64,000 nucleotides of DNA, from contig NC_042997.1 in the NCBI RefSeq assembly GCF_006345805.1, forward strand, positions 130,324,001 to 130,388,000, written 5' to 3'. This document shows positions 604-58,756 of this stretch, piece after piece (position 1 is the first letter of the stretch; the number at the start of each line of letters is the position of its first letter). The notes under the pieces were generated by a model, which ran no database searches, was not told the DNA's origin, and was given only the letters and a program-made list of their open reading frames with translations. This DNA is from Octopus sinensis. Its lineage: Eukaryota. A program made the position numbers and the translations under genes.

Positions 604-873
604 CACACACACATATATATATACACACAACGACCTCGAACCCACAAGAGTAAACGAGAGACAGAGAAAGGCAGAAACAAGGAAAATGCCACTTATATTT
701 GAACACTATACAAATATTCTTTTAAAAAAACTTTTCTTTTAATTTTTCTAAATTTAATTATTCAATTGTTACAGTTGAAAAGGTCTCAATGACTGAAACC
801 GGTACTGAAATGTTCTTTATAAAATTATTTTAGCATTTTCTATCCTGGTTTGTTTTTTCATATATATATATAT

Positions 874-1151
874 TGTGGTGTCGGTGGAGAGGATGACAGT
901 TGGGGGAGGGCAGAAGTTGGGCTTGCAGGGCGCATGTGCGGTAGGAAGCGGAAGCGGCGAGGGACGACGCACGTGTGGCATCGACCAAGCAGGAGTTGCA
1001 GCTGAGACGAGGAAAGCACAAGACGTATCGAGCTGGCTGAGAGAGATCTGAACTTCGCGGAGTTTCGGTAGACTAATCTTTGCCGAGGTAAGGCCTACTT
1101 GTATTTCCATTCTCCTTTTTTCTGTTGTCCTCTTCCATCGTTCACACCACA
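874..1151 (+). repeat. 5' LTR
   Basis: TG...CA ends with an 8-bp terminal inverted repeat; about 13 mismatches versus the 3' LTR by manual alignment. Confidence 0.95.
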
Positions 1152-1191
1152 AGCTATTTCGGCATATAAACAATCGGTTTTATAAATAAAA

Positions 1192-1995
1192 ATGATGAAG
1201 AGTGCCCATGTTTCGCACGAACTTATAACACCGTTTAGCGGCGACACAGATGTAGTCGCTTGGTTGAAGAAAGTGAAGTTGGTGGCGAAGCTCCATGGTA
1301 TAGGTGACCTGGCGAGCTTCATGCCGCTGTACTTGGATGGTCCGGCTTTGGCGTTGTATCTAGAGATGGAAGAGACAGACCAACTTAACGCGGAGAAAGT
1401 GGAAGTCCGGTTGATGGAGGCCTTTGCGGAGGGAATGTTCGAGGCATACGCTCGCCTGGGTAGAATGAGATGGACTGGGCAACAGGTGGACGTGTTTGCC
1501 AATGAACTTAGAAGACTGGCTAAACTGGCGTGTTACGAGGGAGAGTCGCTGGACCGGATGGTTAGGTTGGCGTTCGTGACTGGCTTTCCCGACAACATGT
1601 CGGTCGAGTTACAGAAACTTCCGAATGTGAATTCGATGCCGATGGCGGACATCATATCTCGGGCACGCATACTAGTTTCGTGCAGCAGGATGACGTCGGT
1701 AGCAGTGACTGCAACGTCGAAAAGTGGCCCAGCTAGGAGCAGCGGAGAGGGGCTAAAGAAAGAACATGTGCGCCCGTTCAAAGGACAGTGTTTCCGGTGC
1801 CAAGGTCCACACATGGTGCGTGACTGCGTGTCACCCAAGCCTGAGGTGATTTGCCACCGGTGTCGAGAGCCGGGGCATATAGCCAGCGAGTGTCTGTGGG
1901 GAAACGGACTGCGGGAGACTACTGCGCCGGTAGTTGTCCCTTTGGATCTGTCGGGGCGCGTTTATCATCGCTACCTGTGGTCGACATTCTGGTGA
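1192..1995 (+). CDS. gag: Retrotransposon Gag with two zinc knuckles
   Basis: 267-aa ORF containing CFRCQGPHMVRDC and CHRCREPGHIASEC CCHC-type knuckles. Confidence 0.9.
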   Translation: MMKSAHVSHELITPFSGDTDVVAWLKKVKLVAKLHGIGDLASFMPLYLDGPALALYLEMEETDQLNAEKVEVRLMEAFAEGMFEAYARLGRMRWTGQQVDVFANELRRLAKLACYEGESLDRMVRLAFVTGFPDNMSVELQKLPNVNSMPMADIISRARILVSCSRMTSVAVTATSKSGPARSSGEGLKKEHVRPFKGQCFRCQGPHMVRDCVSPKPEVICHRCREPGHIASECLWGNGLRETTAPVVVPLDLSGRVYHRYLWSTFW

Positions 1996-4460
1996 AGGGG
2001 AAGATGTCGCGAGCCCTTGTGGACATGGGCTGTACAACGACCCTGATGACTACAGAAGTGGCAGAGACGTGGAGTGGAGGAAGCAGTGTTAGGGCTGTCG
2101 ACGGAAGAGAAGTACACTGCGAAGGGGTTACAGATGCACAGATTGTAGTGCAGGGACTACAGCTGACGTTGCGAGTGATTGTGGTTGGTCACTTGGTGGA
2201 CGAGATTGACGTGGTGATGGGGATGGATGCAATCACCCGCTTGGGAGGTGTCACCGTTAACGAGGCTGGTGTAACGTTTGGGTTAGCGGGGAAACCATGT
2301 AGGGCGAGACCATGCACCGGCGACAACCATGAGGAAAAGGATGCTGCACACACCATTGAAGACCAGGATTTTCGGGCTGTCTTTGATGGCAAGAGGTGGA
2401 CAGTGGAGTGGCACTGGAAGGGAGAGCCCCCGATGTTAAAGAATAAAGTGGGCTGCTATCAGCATACTCTAAAAGGAGATGTCAGAAGTGAGTTCGAGGG
2501 GGAGGTGGAGCGGTGGATTAAGGAGGGCATATTGATCACTTGGGAAAAAGAAGAGAGCGGAGTCCTGCCACTGATGGCGGTGATACAGCCCACAAAGCAT
2601 AAGGTGGACAAAACCGTGATACCAGCAATGGAGGTCATAGGCCACCTGAAGAGTTTTGGACTGATCGCCAAGCCGCCAGAGGCAATGGAGGGAGGTGCTG
2701 CACTGGGCCTCAAGCTATGGAGAGACAAGGCCGGCGCGTTGGTGTTCCGGCGAGGGAATGAGGTCCCTGAACTGGGCGCCAGCATGAATAGACGGGAACT
2801 GTTCTCTGTGTGTGGGAAGCTGGTGGGACATTACCCGATTGGAGGTTGGCTCCGAACAGCATGTAGCTTCATCAAGAGACGAGCCGAAGGAGTGAAGTGG
2901 AATGATAGAGTGGGGGAGAGGATGATCGACATGATGCAAGAAGTCTTGGTCAGAGTAGGAACAGAGGACCCAGTGAGGGGCAGCTGGTATGTTCCCAAAT
3001 CAAAGAGCGGGATCGTATGGTGTGACGCCAGTAGCATTGCAATAGGGGTTGTCTTAGAAGTGGGAGGTGTCATGGTGGAAGATGCAGCCTGGCTCAGGAA
3101 GACGGATGACTGCAATCATATCAACGTGGCAGAGTTGGATGCCGTGTTGAAGGGGGTGAACCTAGCCTTGAAGTGGGGGTTGCACACCATAGAAATCAGG
3201 ACTGATTTGGCCACTGTACTTGGTTGGGCGACAGCATTCATCACCGATGAGCGGAGGGTGCGGACCAAAGGGGCTGCAGAGATGCTGGTAAAGCGTCGAT
3301 TGGGAATACTGCGTGAACTAACCACTGAGTTCAATCTGAAGCTGAGCGTGATCTTTGTGCCTTCCGAGAAGAACAGGGCAGACGTCCTGACCAGGGTAAA
3401 GCGAGCCTGGTTGCAGGTGCCAGAGGATGTGAAGCAGGCTGTAGCTGCAGTATGCCGTCTGAGCGACTCGGAGTTGCGGAGACTGCACACCATGCATCAC
3501 ATGGGTGTGGACAGGACATTGTTCCTAGCCAGAAAAGTTGACTCCGACGTAACAAGACAGAGCGTGCAGAGAGTGGTTAGCAGTTGTGACAGGTGCCAGT
3601 CCATCGATCCTGCTCCAGTCGTACATGAAGCGGGAAGTATTCCAGTGGACCAGGACTGGAAACGACTGGCGGTGGACATAACACACTACCGGCAGGGGAC
3701 ATACCTCTCAATGGTTGACTGCGGACCGGGGCGGTTGGCCATATGGAGGGAGATGAAGACGGGGACCGCAGAAGAAATTGTGAAAGTGTTGAATGAGATA
3801 TTCCTGGAACGAGGCCCCGTGGATGAACTGCTTCTGGACAATGGCACTGCATTTCACTCGGATGTGCTGAAAGAAATGCTTGATGAGTGGAAGGTCAACC
3901 GCTTCTTCAGGGCGGCATACCGGCCAAGTGGAAATGGGGTGGTGGAAAGGCATCATCGTACCATCAAGGCCAAGGCAGAGAGGGGTCACATTTCACCAAT
4001 CGAGGCCGTGTTTTGGTACAATATGTCGCCCAGATCAGGACAGGCTGAGGAGTCGGTGCCACACAGGGCAATATTCAGGTACGAGTGGAGGCATCCATGT
4101 ACTACATCAATGCGATCCGGGGCAGAGGAAGAGCACGCCTTCGTGCAGGTCGGGGAGGAAATCTGGGTAAAACCCTCAAATGCACGGTGTACATCACAAT
4201 GGGGAAAGGGGACAATAACATCTGTAAATTCAAAGAATAACATCTCGGTCGATGGTATGCCACGCCACGTTTTGGATATACGGAGGGTTGTCCATGCCTC
4301 AGAGGATGGGACCAGCAGCAGTGGGCAAGATGAAAACAACACCAGTAGACAGGATGATGAGGCCAGCAGCAACATACCAGGAACAAGTTCTAGGGTTGCA
4401 CCGCGACCACAGAGGGAACGGCACCCTCCTCTCTGGTTGGCTGATTATGAAACCAGTTAA
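1851..4460 (+). CDS. pol: Retrotransposon Pol (aspartic protease, RT remnant, RNase H, integrase), probably expressed by -1 frameshift from gag
   Basis: Open frame at -1 relative to gag. PR motif ALVDMG; RNase H WCDAS..AELDA..IRTD; IN HHCC (HTMHH..CDRC) and D-D-E (LAVD, LLLDNG, NGVVER). No YxDD motif anywhere. Confidence 0.9.
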   Translation: MPPVSRAGAYSQRVSVGKRTAGDYCAGSCPFGSVGARLSSLPVVDILVKGKMSRALVDMGCTTTLMTTEVAETWSGGSSVRAVDGREVHCEGVTDAQIVVQGLQLTLRVIVVGHLVDEIDVVMGMDAITRLGGVTVNEAGVTFGLAGKPCRARPCTGDNHEEKDAAHTIEDQDFRAVFDGKRWTVEWHWKGEPPMLKNKVGCYQHTLKGDVRSEFEGEVERWIKEGILITWEKEESGVLPLMAVIQPTKHKVDKTVIPAMEVIGHLKSFGLIAKPPEAMEGGAALGLKLWRDKAGALVFRRGNEVPELGASMNRRELFSVCGKLVGHYPIGGWLRTACSFIKRRAEGVKWNDRVGERMIDMMQEVLVRVGTEDPVRGSWYVPKSKSGIVWCDASSIAIGVVLEVGGVMVEDAAWLRKTDDCNHINVAELDAVLKGVNLALKWGLHTIEIRTDLATVLGWATAFITDERRVRTKGAAEMLVKRRLGILRELTTEFNLKLSVIFVPSEKNRADVLTRVKRAWLQVPEDVKQAVAAVCRLSDSELRRLHTMHHMGVDRTLFLARKVDSDVTRQSVQRVVSSCDRCQSIDPAPVVHEAGSIPVDQDWKRLAVDITHYRQGTYLSMVDCGPGRLAIWREMKTGTAEEIVKVLNEIFLERGPVDELLLDNGTAFHSDVLKEMLDEWKVNRFFRAAYRPSGNGVVERHHRTIKAKAERGHISPIEAVFWYNMSPRSGQAEESVPHRAIFRYEWRHPCTTSMRSGAEEEHAFVQVGEEIWVKPSNARCTSQWGKGTITSVNSKNNISVDGMPRHVLDIRRVVHASEDGTSSSGQDENNTSRQDDEASSNIPGTSSRVAPRPQRERHPPLWLADYETS
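1899..1942 (+). promoter_or_regulatory. -1 programmed ribosomal frameshift signal
   Basis: G GGA AAC heptamer in the gag frame at 1899-1905, 7-nt spacer, then hairpin GGGAGACTAC...GTAGTTGTCCC; lies in the gag/pol overlap. Confidence 0.75.
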
Positions 4461-4520
4461 GGTGCGGGAGCAGAGAGCAAGTGAGAAAGCCGGTTCAGTG
4501 ATCTGTAGATCAGGGGGGCG

Positions 4521-4798
4521 TGTGGTGTCGGTGGAGAGGATGACAGATGGGGGAGGGCGGAAGTAGGGCTTGCAGGGCGCATGCGCGGTAGGAAGCGGAA
4601 GCGGCGAGGGACAACGCACGTGTGGCATCGACCAAGCAGGAGTTGCAGCTGAGACGAGGAAGGCACAAGACGTATCAAGCTGGCTGAGAGAGATCTGAAC
4701 TTCGCTGCGTTTCGGTAGACTAATCTTTGCCGAGATAAGGCCTAATTGTATTTCCATTCTCCTTTTTTCTGTTGTCCTCTTTCATCATTCACACCACA
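4521..4798 (+). repeat. 3' LTR
   Basis: Direct repeat of 874-1151, preceded by a polypurine tract at 4512-4520. Confidence 0.95.
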
Positions 4799-4867
4799 TA
4801 TATATATATATAAATTATAACTGTAAAACTGTCATCTATGTTTGACTTTTATGTGTCTCCTTATCAG

Positions 4868-5113
4868 CTTGCTGAACAACAAGGGATTGATGTTGATACA
4901 ATGGTGATAGCACTTGAGAACGTAGATGAATCAGTTACTCCAATGGAATGGATCCAGACCCAGTGGCCAGATTATATCACAACTGCTACAGTCTTGATTG
5001 TTAACCGAATTGGAGTCCAGTTTCATAAAGAAGACGTAACCTGTGCCTTGAAGAAGCATAAAGGCAATGTAGAAAAAGCTGTCGAAGAATGTACTCATTC
5101 TTATCAAAAAAAG
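4868..5113 (+). CDS. RNF31: RNF31/HOIP coding exon (UBA-like region)
   Basis: ttatcAG acceptor and AAG|GTaact donor; 246 nt, phase 0/0; LAEQQG...ALKKHKGNVEKAVEEC is UBA-like and in frame with the downstream exons. Confidence 0.85.
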
Positions 5114-6548: not shown

Positions 6549-6764
6549 CTTAGAAAGTCGCAAGAATTTGGCAATTTCTCTGAAGAAGATTTCAAACAAG
6601 CTTTTCAGAAACATAGTGGAGATGTTGATCTAATACTCCAAGAGTTATTTACACCTAGTTTAGATGAATATGAGAAAAGAATTTGGGCTATAAATGAGCC
6701 TCTCAATCGTTCGTTATCAGCTGACTTAATTAACCTTTTAAAAGACAATCAAGTAGATGTCCAA
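6549..6764 (+). CDS. RNF31: RNF31/HOIP coding exon (UBA-like region)
   Basis: tttttcAG / CAA|GTaagt; 216 nt; FSEEDFKQAFQKHSGDVDLILQEL. Confidence 0.85.
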
Positions 6765-6894
6765 GTAAGTTCTGCAACAATTCCATCAATTACTTATTTC
6801 GTCTAGATATCCATTTTTAACAGAAGATTACATTACATTATTAATCTAATTATATTGTAGCCTTTTCTGACTTTACATGATGTAGTGGTAATAC

Positions 6895-10381: not shown

Positions 10382-10431
10382 GTAAGCATCTTGTACAATG
10401 TTCTGTTATTTTCATTCACCTTTGATGATTT

Positions 10432-10940
10432 CATCATCATCATCATCATCATTTAACGTCCGCTTTCTATGCTGGCATGGGTTGGACGATTTGACTGAGG
10501 TCTGGCGAACCAGACTCCAATCTGATCTGGCAGAGTTTCTACAGCTGGATGCCCTTCCTTACGCCAACCACTCCGAGAGTGTAGTGGGTGCTTTTACGTG
10601 CCACCGGCATGAGGGCCAGTTTGGTGGTACTGGCAACGGCCACGCCCAAATGGTGCTTTTTACGTGCCACCTGAACAGGAGCCAGTCCAGTGGCACTGGC
10701 GACGGCCTCGCTCGAATATTTCACATGCCACAAGCACAAGTGCTAGTAAGGTGACGTGGTAACGATCACGCTCGAATGGTGTGCTTAACGTGCCATCGGC
10801 ACAAAGGCCAGCTTGTTGCTCTGGCAATGATCTCACTCGTATGGTACTCTAAGCGCTCCACTAGCAACGGATGCCAGTCACCGAATTTGATTTCGACTTC
10901 GATTTGATTTCAACTTCGATATTTGATTTCAACTTCAACT
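10432..10940 (-). repeat. RTE LINE 3'-UTR fragment
   Basis: (CAT)n start on + and TGCCCTTCCT..GCCAACCACTCCGAGAGTGTAGTGGGTGC with tandem GGTGCTTTT.CGTGCCAC units. Confidence 0.8.
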
Positions 10941-23063: not shown

Positions 23064-23449
23064 ATGGTTTTTCTAATAGTGTTGTTTGCTTTCAGTCCAT
23101 CTCGAAAGTATGTCGGGGCTTTTTGATATGTCTTGACATGTTGCATGGTCTTTGTAAACAAAAGGCTCATCTATGAAGAGAGTGCAGGTTTGTTGTGATG
23201 TATATGTATTGTGTGCAGACAGTTAGGGAAGAGTGGAAAGAGGTATTGTTTGCATAGGAATTGGCATTTGTTACAAGTGACAACAGGTAGATAGTGAATG
23301 TGCTGGAAAAGATTTGGTGGGGAACATAACTGAAACATGGGATGCTCAAGAGTTGGTAGAATGAGGGTTTTACTCAGCAAAGTATTCATCACTCTGAGGC
23401 TATAGAAGATACTTTTTCAAGGTGCCATTCAGTAGAATATGAATATATA

Positions 23450-26281
23450 TCATCATCATCATCATCGTTTAGTGTCCACTTTCCATGCTAGCATGGTTTG
23501 GACGGTTCAACTGGGGTCTGGGAAGCCAGAAGGCTGCACCAGGCCCAGTCTGATCTGGCAATGTTTCGACGACTGAATGCCCTTCCTAATGCCAACCACT
23601 CTGTGAGTGTAGTGGGTGCTTTTTATGTGCCAGGCGAGGCTGGCAAACAGCTACGATCGGATGGTGCTTTTTATGTGCCACCGGCACGAGGCCAGTTGGA
23701 TCGGTGCTGGCAACGGCCACGTTCGGTTCTTTTACGTACCACCGGCACTGTTACCACAGCTGCAATTTCCATTGATGTTGATCGATTTTGATTTTGATTT
23801 TGGATTTTCACTTGCCTCAACAGGTCTTCACTAGTAGAGTTTTGTGTCCCAAGAAGAAAAGGTATACATAAGTGGACTGGCTACATCCCATGTAGAGGCC
23901 ACGGGTTATGATCTCACTTGTCCTGCCAGGTCTTCTCACGTACAGCATACTTCCAAAGGTCTCGGTCTCTAGTTATTTCCTCGGTGAGACCTAAAGTTTG
24001 AAGGTTGTGTTTCACCACCTCGTCCCAGGTTTTCCTGGGTCTGCCTCTTCCACAGGTTCCCTCAACCGCTAGGGTGTGGAACTTTTTCACACAACTATCT
24101 TCATCCATTCTCGCCACATGACCATGTCAGCGCAAACGTCTCTCTTGCACACCACAACTGATGCTTCTTAGGTCCAACTTTTCTCTCAAGGTACTTACAC
24201 TCTGTCGAGTATGAACACTGACATTACACATCCATCGGAGCATACTGGCTTCATTTCTTGCGAGCTTATGCATATCCTCAGCAGTCACAGCCCATGTTTC
24301 ACTGCCATGTAGCATGGCTGTTCGTACACATGCGTCATACAGTCTGCCTTTTACTCTGAGTGAGAGGCCTTTTGTCACCAGCAGAGGTAAGAGCTCTCTG
24401 AATTTTGCCCAAGCTATTCTTACTCTAGCAGTTACACTTTCAGCACACCCGCTCCTGCTACTGACTTGGTCACCTAGGTAACGGAAGCTATCAACTATTT
24501 CTTTTTTTTCTCCCTGGAATGTGGCAGAAGTTGGTCTCAGAGCATTTTCAGTGTTTATTGCTCCTGAGCATCTGCCACATACAAAAACTATCTTCCTAGT
24601 TAGCCTTCCTTTGACATTGCTGCACCTCTTATGTGTCCATAGCTTACACTTGGTGCATCTTATAGAGTTTCTGCCTACGCCTTTTCTGCAGATCGAGCAG
24701 GGCCATCTACCTGAAGGCATTTGTGATTTGTCTACCTTTCTACTTATTAGGACTTTGGTTTTAGCCAGATTGACCCTAAGGCCCTTTGATTCTAATCCTT
24801 GCTTCCACACCTGAAACTTCTCCTCCAGTTCTGATAGTGACTCAGCAATTAGAGCAAAGTCATCAGCATAGAAGAGCTCCCAGGGGCATCCTGTCTTGAA
24901 TTCTTCTGTTATTGCTTGGAGGACTATGATAAATAGGAGGGGGCTGAGGACTGAGCCTTGGTGGACCCCAACCTCTACCCGGAATTCTTCACTGTACTCG
25001 TTGCCAACCCTCACCTTACTAGCGGTGTCCCTGTACATGGCTCGCACAGCTCTCACTAACCATTCATCTATCCCTAGTTTCCTCATTGACCACCAAATAA
25101 GGGATCAGGGGACGCTGTCGAAGGCTTTCTCCATATCAACGAAAGCCAGGTACAGGGGCTTATCTTTGGCTAGGTATTTCTCCTGCAGCTGCCTTACCAG
25201 GAATATAGCATCAGTGGTACTTTTCCCTGGCATGAACCCAAACTACATCTCATCTAAACTAACTCTCTCTCTAATTAGTTGGGCTATGACCCTCTCCGTA
25301 ACCTTCATTACCTGATCCAACAACTTGATACCTCTGTAATTATTTGTATCTAGGGCGTCACCTTTACCTTTGTAGCAGTTGACTATTATGCTGCTACACC
25401 AGTCATTGGGTATGACTCCTTCGTGTATCACCTGATTAACTATATGGGTGACTAGGCTATAGCTGACACTACCAGATATTTTGAGCATCTCTGCAGTGAT
25501 TTCTGATGGGCCTGGGGCTTTCCCTGTCTTCATGCTTCTAATTGCCTTAACTACCAAGGAACTGTCAACTCGGATAGCTGGTCCCTCTGTTGGGTCGACA
25601 TTCGGCAGACTCTCTTTATCCCATTCATTTTCTTTATTCAGCAACCTTTTATTGTGGCGTCTCCAAACCTCTCTCTTTGCATCCTCATTTAGCGCAAGTG
25701 AACCATCATCCATGTGAACACATTTCTCTCCTACCACATCACGATTCTCTCTCACACACTGTCTTGCAACACGAAATACCTCAAGTCTTTGGTCCTCACG
25801 GCGCAGAACATTGGCAAATTTTTTCTTATCTGCTTCCCCTCTGGCTAAATAGACCTGTCTCCTAGCTTCTCTTTTGGCAGTCTGATACAATTCCCTGCTA
25901 CCACCATTCTTCCAGTCCTTCCAAGCCTGTCTCTTTTGTCTAATAGCCCTGTCTACAACATTGTTCCACCACCACATTATTTTGGGTCGAGAGGGGTTTT
26001 GCACCATCCACAGATCTGGTCAGTGGCTCTCAGCAGGTTGTCCCTTAGAAACGTCCAGTTGTCTTCTACCCCATTTGAAGCTCTATCCCCTTCTACTTCG
26101 TCAAAGGCTTCAAGTAATATGTCCCTAAATCTTTGTCCATTCACAGGATCTTTAAGCTTCCAGATCCTTCTTCTCCATGTTGGTCATCTTCTGGTCGTTC
26201 TCTTAGTCCTGATCCTAAAGTCACTAACTACCAGTCTATGTTGTGGGGTACATTCTTCGCCTGGGAACGTTTTGGCATTTA
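23450..26281 (-). mobile_element. 5'-truncated RTE-clade LINE, antisense in an RNF31 intron
   Basis: APE end (PGEECTPQHRLV), RT motifs (NYRGIKLL, GVHQGSVLSP, FYADD), Cys-rich insert (CSIC..CTKCKLWTHKRC..CGRC), a few stops and frameshifts, and a 3' UTR ending in (GAT)n. Confidence 0.93.
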
Positions 26282-46769: not shown

Positions 46770-48713
46770 CAAAAGGATGCGTGATAACACCATTCCATAT
46801 ATACAAAAACAGCCATTCTGACAATCCAACATACCTCCATGATCAGCTGCTCCATGGATATCATTTGGTTTTGACACCCATGCAGTACCATTCAATCTGG
46901 CAATGTCAACGGCACTAAAAGGAGTGTTGTTTGGGAACAAGCATACCAATATATATACACACACACATATGCATACATATATATTAGAAGTGAAGTCGAA
47001 AATTTGTCTCATGACATGAGATACACACACACTCACACACCACACACACACACACATACACACGCGTGCGCGCACACACACACACAAACACACACACACA
47101 CACACAATAGTTGCAACACGGATAACACATGTTAGCCTTTCAAAAACACAGGAATATTGTTAATTTTCCTAAAGTATTTATTGTTTGTAATATGGTGTCA
47201 AAACTTTTGTCACTCCAAACTGCAAATTACTTTCGCACTGCAGTGCATTAATGTTGCCAATGACCAGGTTGTAGCTTGGAGCAATGAAAATTTTGACACC
47301 ATATTACAAACAATAAATGTTACAGAGAAGTTAACTATATTTGCGTGCTTTTGAATGACTAGCTTGTGTCTTCCATGCTGCAGCCACTTTAGTTGTAACA
47401 CAAAGTCTTAGATCAAAACACTTGCCATGCAAGTACATCTCTGGCATCATCATCTCATCATAAAAATAATAATCATCATCGTTTAATGTCCGCTTTCCAT
47501 ACTAGCATGGGTTGGACGATTTGACTGAGGTATGGCAAACCAGATTGCTGCATCAGACTCCAATCTGATCTGGCAGAGTTTCTACAGCTGGATGCCCTTC
47601 CTAACGCCAACCACTCCGAGAGTGTAGTGGGTGCTTTTATGTGCCACCAGCACGAGGGCCAGTCAGGCGGACTGGCAATGGCCACACTCAAATGGTGCTT
47701 TTTATGTGCCACCTGCACAGGAGCCAGTCCAGCGGCACTGGCAACAACCTCACTTGAATGTTATAATAATAATATATAATAATGAAATTATTGTGTATAG
47801 TGCTTAGATGCATGTATAGTATGAAAGTCAGGAAAGCGAACAGTGTATGAGTCATGATATATGTGTGCATGTATATGGAGGTGGGGATATCAGGTGTAGT
47901 GTTGGTGAATTTCAGGAAGCATGGAAGTTTTAAAGGATGCAATATCTCAGTGACTAACAACTGATGCTGGTTCTTTGTTCCATGCTTCAACAACTCAGAG
48001 TGTGAAAAAATGTTTCCAAAAGTCATGGGAGCTGTGCTGTTTTCTGACTTTGTAGGCATGCCCACGTGTGTTAGACACATGGAGCTCAAAAAGGTTCTCA
48101 AGGTAGTTATCATCGTCATCATTTAGTGTCTGTTTTTCATGCTGTCATAGGTTAACCAGTTTGACTGGGACTGTAAACTAGAGAGCTGCGCCAGGCACAG
48201 TACCAGAATTTTCAACTCAAGTCAAATATAATAAACTACTCTGAATCGTTAGAATATCTGCATAAGTGGGGTCTGGACTGGCTAGTTTGTACTGGCACTG
48301 ACTAATATTAGTAGTAATAAAGAAGTCAAAGTAAATACTGATATTTTGTAAATATTTAATAAGTTATCTTTCTGGATTGAGTAATCATCATTTAATGTCC
48401 CTTTTCCATGCTAGCATGGGTTGGACGGTTCAACTGGGGTCTTGGAAGCCATGGAGGCTGCACCAGGCTCCAGTCTGATCTGACAGTGTTTCTACAGCTG
48501 GGTGCCCTTCCTAATGCCAACCACTCCGTGAGTGTAGTGGGTGTTTTTTACGTGCCACCGGCACAGGGGCCAGGGGAGGCTGGAAAACGGCCATGATCGG
48601 TTGGTGCTTTTATGTGTCACTGACACGGACGCCAGTCAGGTGGCGTTGGCATCTGCCATGTTCAGATGGTGCTTTTTACGTGTCACCGGCATGGCTTTCT
48701 TAACTACAATGTA

Positions 48714-49186
48714 CAGGATTATTCAAAAAGAATGAACCGATTTCACTATGCAATAAGAAAAAGCAATAGAAATCTCCAGCTAAGTCACAAGTATTTACTC
48801 ACACTCACCTTTTATTTCCTCTCTTACAAGTGTTCAATGTGGCTACCACTTGCTGCACGGGCAACATCAATGCAATAAAAGAATTCCTCCCAGACAAGTA
48901 TCAGCATATCATAATCCATTGAGTTTATTGCTTTTGTTATTTGATGTTTAAGGTCATCGAGGTTAGTGGGTAGTGGTGGAACATATGCTGATACTCGTCT
49001 AGGAGGAATTTTCTTATTGCATTGATATTGCCCGTGCTGCAGGTGGTGGCCACATTGAACACTTGTAAGACAGGAAATAAAAGTTGATTGTGAGTAAATA
49101 CTTGTGACTTAGTTGGAGCTTTCTATTGCTCTTCCTTATTAAAATATTGTGTAATGAAATCAGTTCATTTGTTTTGAATAACCCTG
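48714..49186. mobile_element. Tc1/mariner-derived foldback MITE
   Basis: TA TSD; TIR CAGG(A/G)TTATTCAAAA.AA.TGAAC.GATTTCA; ~190-bp inverted arms; the minus strand reads YVPPLPTNLDDLKHQITKAINSM..VWEEF..HIEHL-stop, a transposase C-terminus. Confidence 0.8.
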
Positions 49187-58363: not shown

Positions 58364-58756
58364 AAGTTCAGCAAAAATTTAGATTCAAATGAATATGGTA
58401 CTTAATTTAGATGCACCAGAATTTTGTATGGTGTTATCCATAAAAATAAGCAACAAGAATGACTCCGGTAATTTGGTACGATCGTTTTGTACTACATCAT
58501 TTTATTAAATGTTGTAAGTATTACAACAGATTTAAGATGCTGAGTACTCATCAGCCAATTATAGATTTATTAAATGTTGTAAGTATTATAACAGATTTAA
58601 GATGCTGAGTACTCATCAGCCAATTATAGATATATAATTGGCTGATGAGTACTCAGCATCTTAAATCTGTTGTAATACTTACAACATTTAATAAAATTAT
58701 GTAGTACAAAACGATCGTACCAAATTACCGGAGTCACTCTTGTTGCTTATTTTGAG
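58364..58756. mobile_element. Penelope-like terminal-repeat element with a long inverted duplication and hammerhead-like motifs
   Basis: ~120-bp inverted arms (58443-58565 and 58631-58753) plus a ~65-bp tandem duplication; CTGATGA-GTACT...AGTAC-AAAA-CGATCG-TA on both strands; flanked by (TA)n. Confidence 0.7.

Follow-up and report, generated by a model that had tools for sequence, protein, structure and literature searches.

A decaying Gypsy-like retrotransposon of Octopus sinensis with a one-off loss of the reverse transcriptase palm, from a family that probably primes from the 5′ end of tRNA-Phe

The window analysed here is a 64,000-nucleotide stretch of the Octopus sinensis genome (NCBI RefSeq assembly GCF_006345805.1, contig NC_042997.1, positions 130,324,001 to 130,388,000 of the forward strand; G000:C1:130324001-130388000), and positions 874–4798 of it are occupied by a compact long terminal repeat (LTR) retrotransposon, the clade of which is about 4.2 kb in size. 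We consider it probable that this element is a decaying copy of a multi-copy LTR family which lost the palm of its reverse transcriptase (RT) in a one-off event, and that its family primes reverse transcription from a 5′-terminal piece of tRNA-Phe. The copy would have inserted into an intron of a host gene, and would have undergone neutral decay thereafter.

A primer-binding site complementary to the 5′ end of tRNA-Phe

The 12 bases that follow the 5′ LTR do not begin with TGG, and form a primer-binding site (PBS) complementary to nucleotides 1–12 of tRNA-Phe, which is the only run of at least 9 nt in the element that is complementary to this tRNA. A pattern derived from the reverse complement of the PBS gave 126 matches in the genome (all genome searches and copy counts refer to one assembly of 2.72 Gb); among the matches listed nearly all were tRNA-like, and ARAGORN called tRNA-Phe(GAA) in all three that were tested. 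The PBS complements the 5′ end of the tRNA, as opposed to the 3′ end, the anticodon arm or an LTR of the element itself. Genes for tRNA-Phe form a tandem array that repeats about every 200 bp (G000:C15:43562502-43577351, with more than 60 listed), and a second, looser cluster lies at C6:4205042-4331753.

Within the family the PBS was exact in 30 of the 41 aligned copies where it could be placed, with the other 11 differing by one or two bases, and it stays fixed while LTR identity drops to about 65%. The PBS form was present at 271 genomic sites, versus a single site for a control pattern, and gag was located directly behind it in 65 of 72 loci picked by the PBS, at 36–89% identity, which indicates that several families share this site. 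The genome contains several more families of the clade (L306-L377), with gag proteins 36–61% identical to that of the window and with some LTRs 99–100% identical, and hence young. In a metagenome test, 59 loci were picked by Pol motifs alone, and 29 of these included a gag start and upstream DNA; ACA followed by the PBS form was present in 28/29, and all 28 end in GGC, which was not required by the search, at a Pol identity of 40–57%.

Six variants of the PBS were found, with the differences mostly opposite tRNA nucleotides 5–6, while base 13 is free, and conservation goes no further than tRNA nucleotide 1. The variants represent at least 9 changes, which are clustered (quick tree of 35 rows without host labels, L307 being dropped as too short). 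No tRNA starting with the complement of a variant PBS was found in this genome, and no relatives were found in viral contigs.

A proposed priming mechanism and its alternatives

Reverse transcription in this clade is likely to be primed from a 5′-terminal tRNA piece. In our proposal, the PBS would invade the acceptor stem of the tRNA, displace the 3′ strand and pair with nucleotides 1–12, after which a cut near nucleotides 10–12 would free a 3′-OH beside the LTR end, where minus-strand synthesis would begin. The proposal would account for a PBS that measures exactly 12 nt and ends at tRNA nucleotide 1. The cutting enzyme would most likely be the element's own RNase H, by analogy with Tf1, in which the initial 11 bases of the element's own RNA anneal to the PBS and are freed by RNase H (PMC7175516; this paper and PMC4402516, PMC5371799, PMC6238403, PMC6317226, PMC7038984, PMC10886601, PMC11673190 and PMC12440569 were available in part, and what is taken from them refers to those parts).

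The preference for this RNase H over a host nuclease is only moderate. A cut by a host nuclease would land within the D-stem, and described 5′ tRNA fragments are longer than 10–12 nt, which counts against such an origin of the primer. That the primer is a 10–12-nt 5′ tRNA fragment released by a host nuclease is unlikely, but is kept in contention by Ty5, which relies on a tRNA that host RNase P has cut (PMC5371799), and by the sequence evidence, which it fits equally well; the length of the primer agrees with that of Tf1, at 11 nt (PMC7175516), and so argues against it.

Alternatively, the 12-nt site may be an auxiliary contact, as part of a Ty3-like bipartite PBS, or a target for 5′ tRNA fragments, with priming occurring elsewhere or from the CCA end of the tRNA. 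Ty3 does pair with tRNA arms besides the 3′ end (PMC5371799), and the priming mode proposed for our element is a reading of its sequence. We regard this explanation as quite improbable, since the site directly abuts the LTR in the position of a PBS, no TGG-type site lies there, and the element contains no second stretch of at least 9 nt complementary to tRNA-Phe; for a silencing target, persistence across Pols that are only 40–57% identical would not be expected.

Self-priming of the Tf1/sushi type, with the tRNA match being incidental, is extremely improbable. The window LTR and those of close siblings do contain a 9–10-nt stretch (counting G-U pairs), some 70 nt short of the LTR end, which could pair with the PBS, but this stretch is not retained in other subfamilies, and the longest Watson-Crick complement of the PBS seen in 23 distant relatives equalled that of a shuffled control (5.09 versus 5.13). 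A PBS that is constant while the LTRs diverge is likewise at odds with self-priming, which is largely refuted by the lack of an LTR complement above control.

A survey of LTR elements lists three primer types, these being whole tRNA, half tRNA and self-primer (PMC6317226), and a site against tRNA nucleotides 1–12 fits none of the three types as listed there. The literature search, which did not extend to Repbase Reports, GyDB or the majority of subscription journals, turned up no account of a PBS directed at the 5′ end of a tRNA, and this type of primer site is apparently undescribed, its priority being uncertain. The 12-mer itself occurs in one paper, on Drosophila tRNA methylation (PMC7038984), and the idea that priming on spliced leader (SL) RNA is used by the Tor elements of Oikopleura found no support in the available part of PMC4402516. 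In its broadest form, the proposal would be that a widespread and apparently unnamed clade, marked by DUF7047, primes from the 5′ 10–12 nt of host tRNA-Phe cut by its own RNase H, and that this constitutes a fourth priming mode, which combines the 5′-end cleavage of Tf1 with a tRNA as substrate and in which the PBS tracks the host acceptor stem; this broad form is put forward tentatively, as a possibility falling slightly short of an even chance.

Loss of the RT palm as a one-off lesion

A preliminary description of this stretch had reported an RT-less element in which an in-frame deletion had removed the polymerase core, with a junction at about 2606/2607 and a possible GGTG microhomology. 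The in-frame deletion is borne out by the comparison with siblings, as the missing stretch measures 339 bp (113 codons) in 25 of 26 two-sided sibling loci (24 distinct copies) and 338 bp in the remaining locus, and contains the YIDD motif in 21 of the 26; the YxDD motif is indeed absent from the window pol. The junction is also real, but the break is located between 2602/2603 and 2605/2606, and its microhomology consists of three nucleotides, GGT, instead of four. A Pfam search, as proposed in that description, gave no RVT_1 match in the window pol, while the same stretch of a sibling matched RVT_1 (E 1.8e-5, below the Pfam cut-off) entirely within the part that the window lacks. Since this match falls within the gap, and since the similarity of the sibling to the RT of murine leukaemia virus (MLV) starts about 55 residues before it, the RT has lost its palm and is left with its N-terminus and thumb. 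The palm was removed in frame, with retention of the RT N-terminus, the thumb, RNase H and integrase.

A search of the whole assembly with the 22-mer spanning the junction, allowing up to 2 mismatches, recovered the window and one site unrelated to the family, and a gapped pattern with 0–30 bases between the flanks matched only the window, whereas the unbroken left breakpoint was present at 125 sites. The deletion is a one-off lesion and represents ordinary decay, and it is likely to have arisen by microhomology-mediated deletion, either in the course of reverse transcription or once the copy had inserted.

An error of assembly or polishing, in a copy that is ordinary in other respects, is a very unlikely source of the gap. 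The uniqueness of the junction would suit such an error, but the break is clean, in frame and at a 3-nt microhomology, resembling other private deletions of the family, and around it the frames are open and the substitutions look neutral. Three Logan contigs span the boundary between the 3′ LTR and the flank and show no differences, but their share of the LTR is only 29 letters (threshold 31).

Further changes are found in this copy. The residue following the catalytic Asp of the protease is Met, which was seen in none of 107 homologues and in 2 of 51 siblings, and the usual gag stop, which is located 16–17 codons past the slippery site in 37/45 siblings, has been lost, so that the window gag extends 14–15 codons beyond the stop of most siblings. 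The 38 private codon changes consist of 13 synonymous and 25 non-synonymous changes, with dN/dS (the ratio of non-synonymous to synonymous rates) at 0.61–0.86 (p 0.19–0.86), which does not differ from neutral decay. The preliminary description had suggested that the copy could still supply capsid and integrase, and the catalytic residues of RNase H and integrase are present; because the protease motif is altered, the gag stop is absent and the changes fit neutral decay, such a role is doubtful.

Deletions across the family and the case for an RT-less lineage

The aligned set consisted of the window and 60 siblings (61 rows), in which 36 deletions of at least 50 bp were found in 25 rows. Private deletions are common among the siblings. 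Of the 24 deletions that could be scored for microhomology (the other 12 being without a clean comparator), 18 had at least 2 nt, versus about 16% calculated by chance. All siblings bar one had been chosen via the unbroken breakpoint, and because of this bias 72 additional loci were picked by the PBS, from the first 100 of the 271 listed sites. The RT core was partly or wholly lost in 4 of these 72, with gag, protease, RNase H and integrase kept.

The sole real shared junction was that of L093 and L319, which are 99.9% identical over 4702 bp. Because their flanks are identical too, the two represent a duplicated block (a segmental or assembly duplication) and not transposition; they lie about 125 kb apart on C2, and the copy inside holds another in-frame RT deletion, of 288 bp. 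Apparent deletions of 3.7–4.0 kb in the shared-junction comparison were LTR-to-LTR jumps, and the long shared lists of L310, L322 and L364 are read as resulting from probes in undeleted or LTR sequence, since these probes match full-length copies. Clustered copies, some in opposite orientation, were also seen at L010 and L021 and on the short unplaced contigs C2365, C6359, C8689 and C12541, and are either nested insertions or assembly artefacts.

The preliminary description had further raised the possibility that an RT-less derivative spreads here as a non-autonomous family, with RT provided in trans and Gag and integrase supplied by itself. In its favour are the deletion being in frame, the open gag and pol, and the preservation of the LTRs, the PBS and the polypurine tract (PPT) alongside the catalytic residues of RNase H and integrase; potential helpers also exist, as 6/60 siblings have a pol open reading frame (ORF) of at least 950 aa with YxDD. 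A copy without functional RT that keeps its cis signals has two properties of a non-autonomous element, but the same lesion was not found at independent insertion sites in the assembly, a single junction standing against the 125 unbroken breakpoints, and this is the outcome which that description had itself named as speaking against such a family. About a third of the deletions in the aligned set are in frame (13/36), and with 38 changes the chance of acquiring no stop is 0.2–0.3. Together with the altered protease motif and gag stop, the neutral-looking changes, and the presence of [YF]xDD in all 120 listed homologous Pol proteins, none of which is RT-less, this makes a propagating RT-less family highly improbable.

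Several points weigh against a one-off lesion in a decaying copy of a family primed from the tRNA 5′ end. An assembly error would be compatible with the read data, as no piece across the deletion was found in the Logan contigs of X1–X4 and of X1, X2, X3 and X6; this absence carries no information, most of these contigs also missing the window's own single-base variants. The dN/dS estimates are all below 1, without being significantly so, and open frames are the minority state, with an ORF of at least 850 aa in 8/60 siblings. The siblings were selected, bar one, by the unbroken breakpoint, and the second sample covered 100 of 271 sites. The mode of priming is deduced from nucleotide patterns, and the transfer of Tf1-type cleavage to a tRNA is an analogy. 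Finally, matches in viral contigs for two PBS variants were tRNA starts in 23/108 and 8/40 cases, with Phe in only 4 and 2 of these and Thr being commoner.

Comparison with known LTR retrotransposons

The element works like a Gypsy-type LTR element, without placement in a named clade. In common with Metaviridae/Ty3-Gypsy (PMC7879559), it has TG...CA LTRs, gag followed by pol, the order protease, RT, RNase H, integrase (with the RT palm taken from siblings), a PPT, CCHC knuckles and a 5-bp target site duplication (TSD), within the 4–6 bp of Gypsy elements. The PBS sets it apart, with 18 nt against the tRNA 3′ end in Metaviridae (PMC7879559) and 12 nt against the 5′ end here, and its RT is divergent. 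In an alignment of 21 homologues, DUF7047, rve and RVT_3 matched all 21 and RVT_1 matched 17 (best E 2e-7), while the RT_RNaseH family matched none of the 21, their RNase H matching RVT_3/RNase_H instead. Known Gypsy members, Tf1 for example, likewise deviate from a 3′-end PBS. There is no room in the alignment for a tether at the RNase H of the clade, and this lineage may branch deeply. Of 148 Protein Data Bank (PDB) matches, the best 60 were retroviral integrases, RTs and Gag-Pol proteins, plus two DDI1 chains, and two motifs of the clade were not found in four supplements of PMC6238403.

The closest parallels in priming are with two other groups. Tf1/sushi elements share a short PBS (11 nt in Tf1), which pairs with 5′-terminal bases of an RNA that needs a cut to obtain a 3′-OH (PMC7175516, PMC6317226), but here these bases are provided in trans by the host tRNA-Phe, the PBS does not complement the own LTR, and the cleavage is predicted. 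The half-tRNA-primed elements copia, Ty5, Osser, Bianca and the fungal Helenus resemble the mode proposed here in that their primer is the 5′ part of a tRNA cut internally (PMC5371799, PMC6317226, PMC10886601), in Ty5 and copia cut in the anticodon arm (PMC5371799); these are Copia elements, with pairing to the anticodon arm and integrase before RT, whereas our element pairs with nucleotides 1–12 and has a Gypsy-like domain order.

The Troyka/Kuafuorterviruses (PMC12440569, PMC11673190) are likewise LTR elements from aquatic animals that are compact and divergent and have the order protease, RT, RNase H, integrase, but they show CG...CG ends, a 3-bp TSD, [ILV]ADD and a CX2CX8-10HX4C knuckle, in contrast to the TG...CA, 5-bp TSD, YIDD and CX2CX4HX4C found here, and membership in Kuafuorterviridae was rejected on these four characters. 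A term search of the available part of the Troyka paper (PMC12440569) gave no mention of a PBS. TRIMs and SMARTs (PMC10886601) also lack a functional RT while keeping LTR, PBS and PPT, but are multi-copy families with a common structure, compared with the single lesion of the window copy.

Element anatomy and host locus

The features of the element are given in Table 1, and agree in most respects with the preliminary description. The LTRs, described as about 95% identical, differ at 13 positions over 278 bp (95.3%), and the PPT, the open gag and the predicted frameshift signal are present as reported. The pol frame is open, but measures 871 aa rather than 869 aa from stop to stop. Pfam matches in it were to protease, DUF7047, RVT_3 (RNase H), the integrase zinc finger and rve, so that the protease, RNase H and integrase domains are kept as claimed, with the protease motif being altered. 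TATAT does flank both ends, but since it sits in a (TA)n run it is not sufficient alone as a TSD; among related elements with both ends placed, a 5-bp TSD was found in 27/34. The frameshift heptamer was kept in 44 of 61 aligned rows, and the stimulatory fold sought 3′ of it was not significant (z -1.22; 21/200 shuffles fold equally well).

Table 1. Coordinates of the element and of the adjacent host exon in the window.
Feature	Position	Strand	Remarks
Left TSD TATAT	869..873	+	Within (TA)n run
5′ LTR	874..1151	+	278 bp, TG...CA ends
PBS	1152..1163	+	Abuts 5′ LTR; exact reverse complement of host tRNA-Phe(GAA) nt 1-12
gag ORF	1192..1995	+	267 aa, two zinc knuckles
pol frame	1845..4460	+	Open, 871 aa between stops; contains protease, RT N-terminus, thumb/DUF7047, RNase H, integrase
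-1 frameshift heptamer G GGA AAC (predicted)	1899..1905	+	Read in gag frame, pol at -1
Protease active-site motif	2019..2030	+	Codon 2025-2027 encodes residue unseen in homologues
Deletion junction	2603..2605	+	339 bp of RT palm gone, 3-nt microhomology, single occurrence in assembly
PPT region	4507..4520	+	Immediately 5′ of 3′ LTR
3′ LTR	4521..4798	+	278 bp, TG...CA ends
Right TSD TATAT	4799..4803	+	
Host exon, HOIP/RNF31-like UBA domain	4868..5113	+	UBA_HOIP E 2e-10; 69 bases behind element

The element lies in sense orientation within an intron of a HOIP/RNF31-like gene, 69 bases before the splice acceptor. Further exons of this gene were located at 6552-6782 of the window and at G000:C1:130323692-130323891, which ends about 110 bases before the window, and in a processed fragment of the same gene (L305, G000:C1:194599915-194603089), which is 98% identical, the exons on either side of the element are joined directly. 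Elsewhere in the window, a dispersed SINE-like repeat is found on both strands beside (CAT)n runs (10421-10627, 23437-23655, 47451-47670 and others), as well as two long hairpin-type inverted repeats with short spacers, at 48752-49140 (158 nt at 91%) and 58443-58753 (128 nt at 97%).

Implications

A site against tRNA nucleotides 1–12 implies that the acceptor stem is opened and that the tRNA is cut near the D-stem. If our reading is true, these elements would lie outside silencing by 3′ tRNA fragments, and would be invisible to PBS finders which test only tRNA 3′ ends. Named relatives are found in a cephalopod, crustaceans and a gastropod, with hits in Argonauta, Oratosquilla, Petrolisthes and Aplysia among them, and 9 of 34 related elements have LTRs at least 99% identical; with relatives in several animals and LTRs this similar, natural priming intermediates can be sought.

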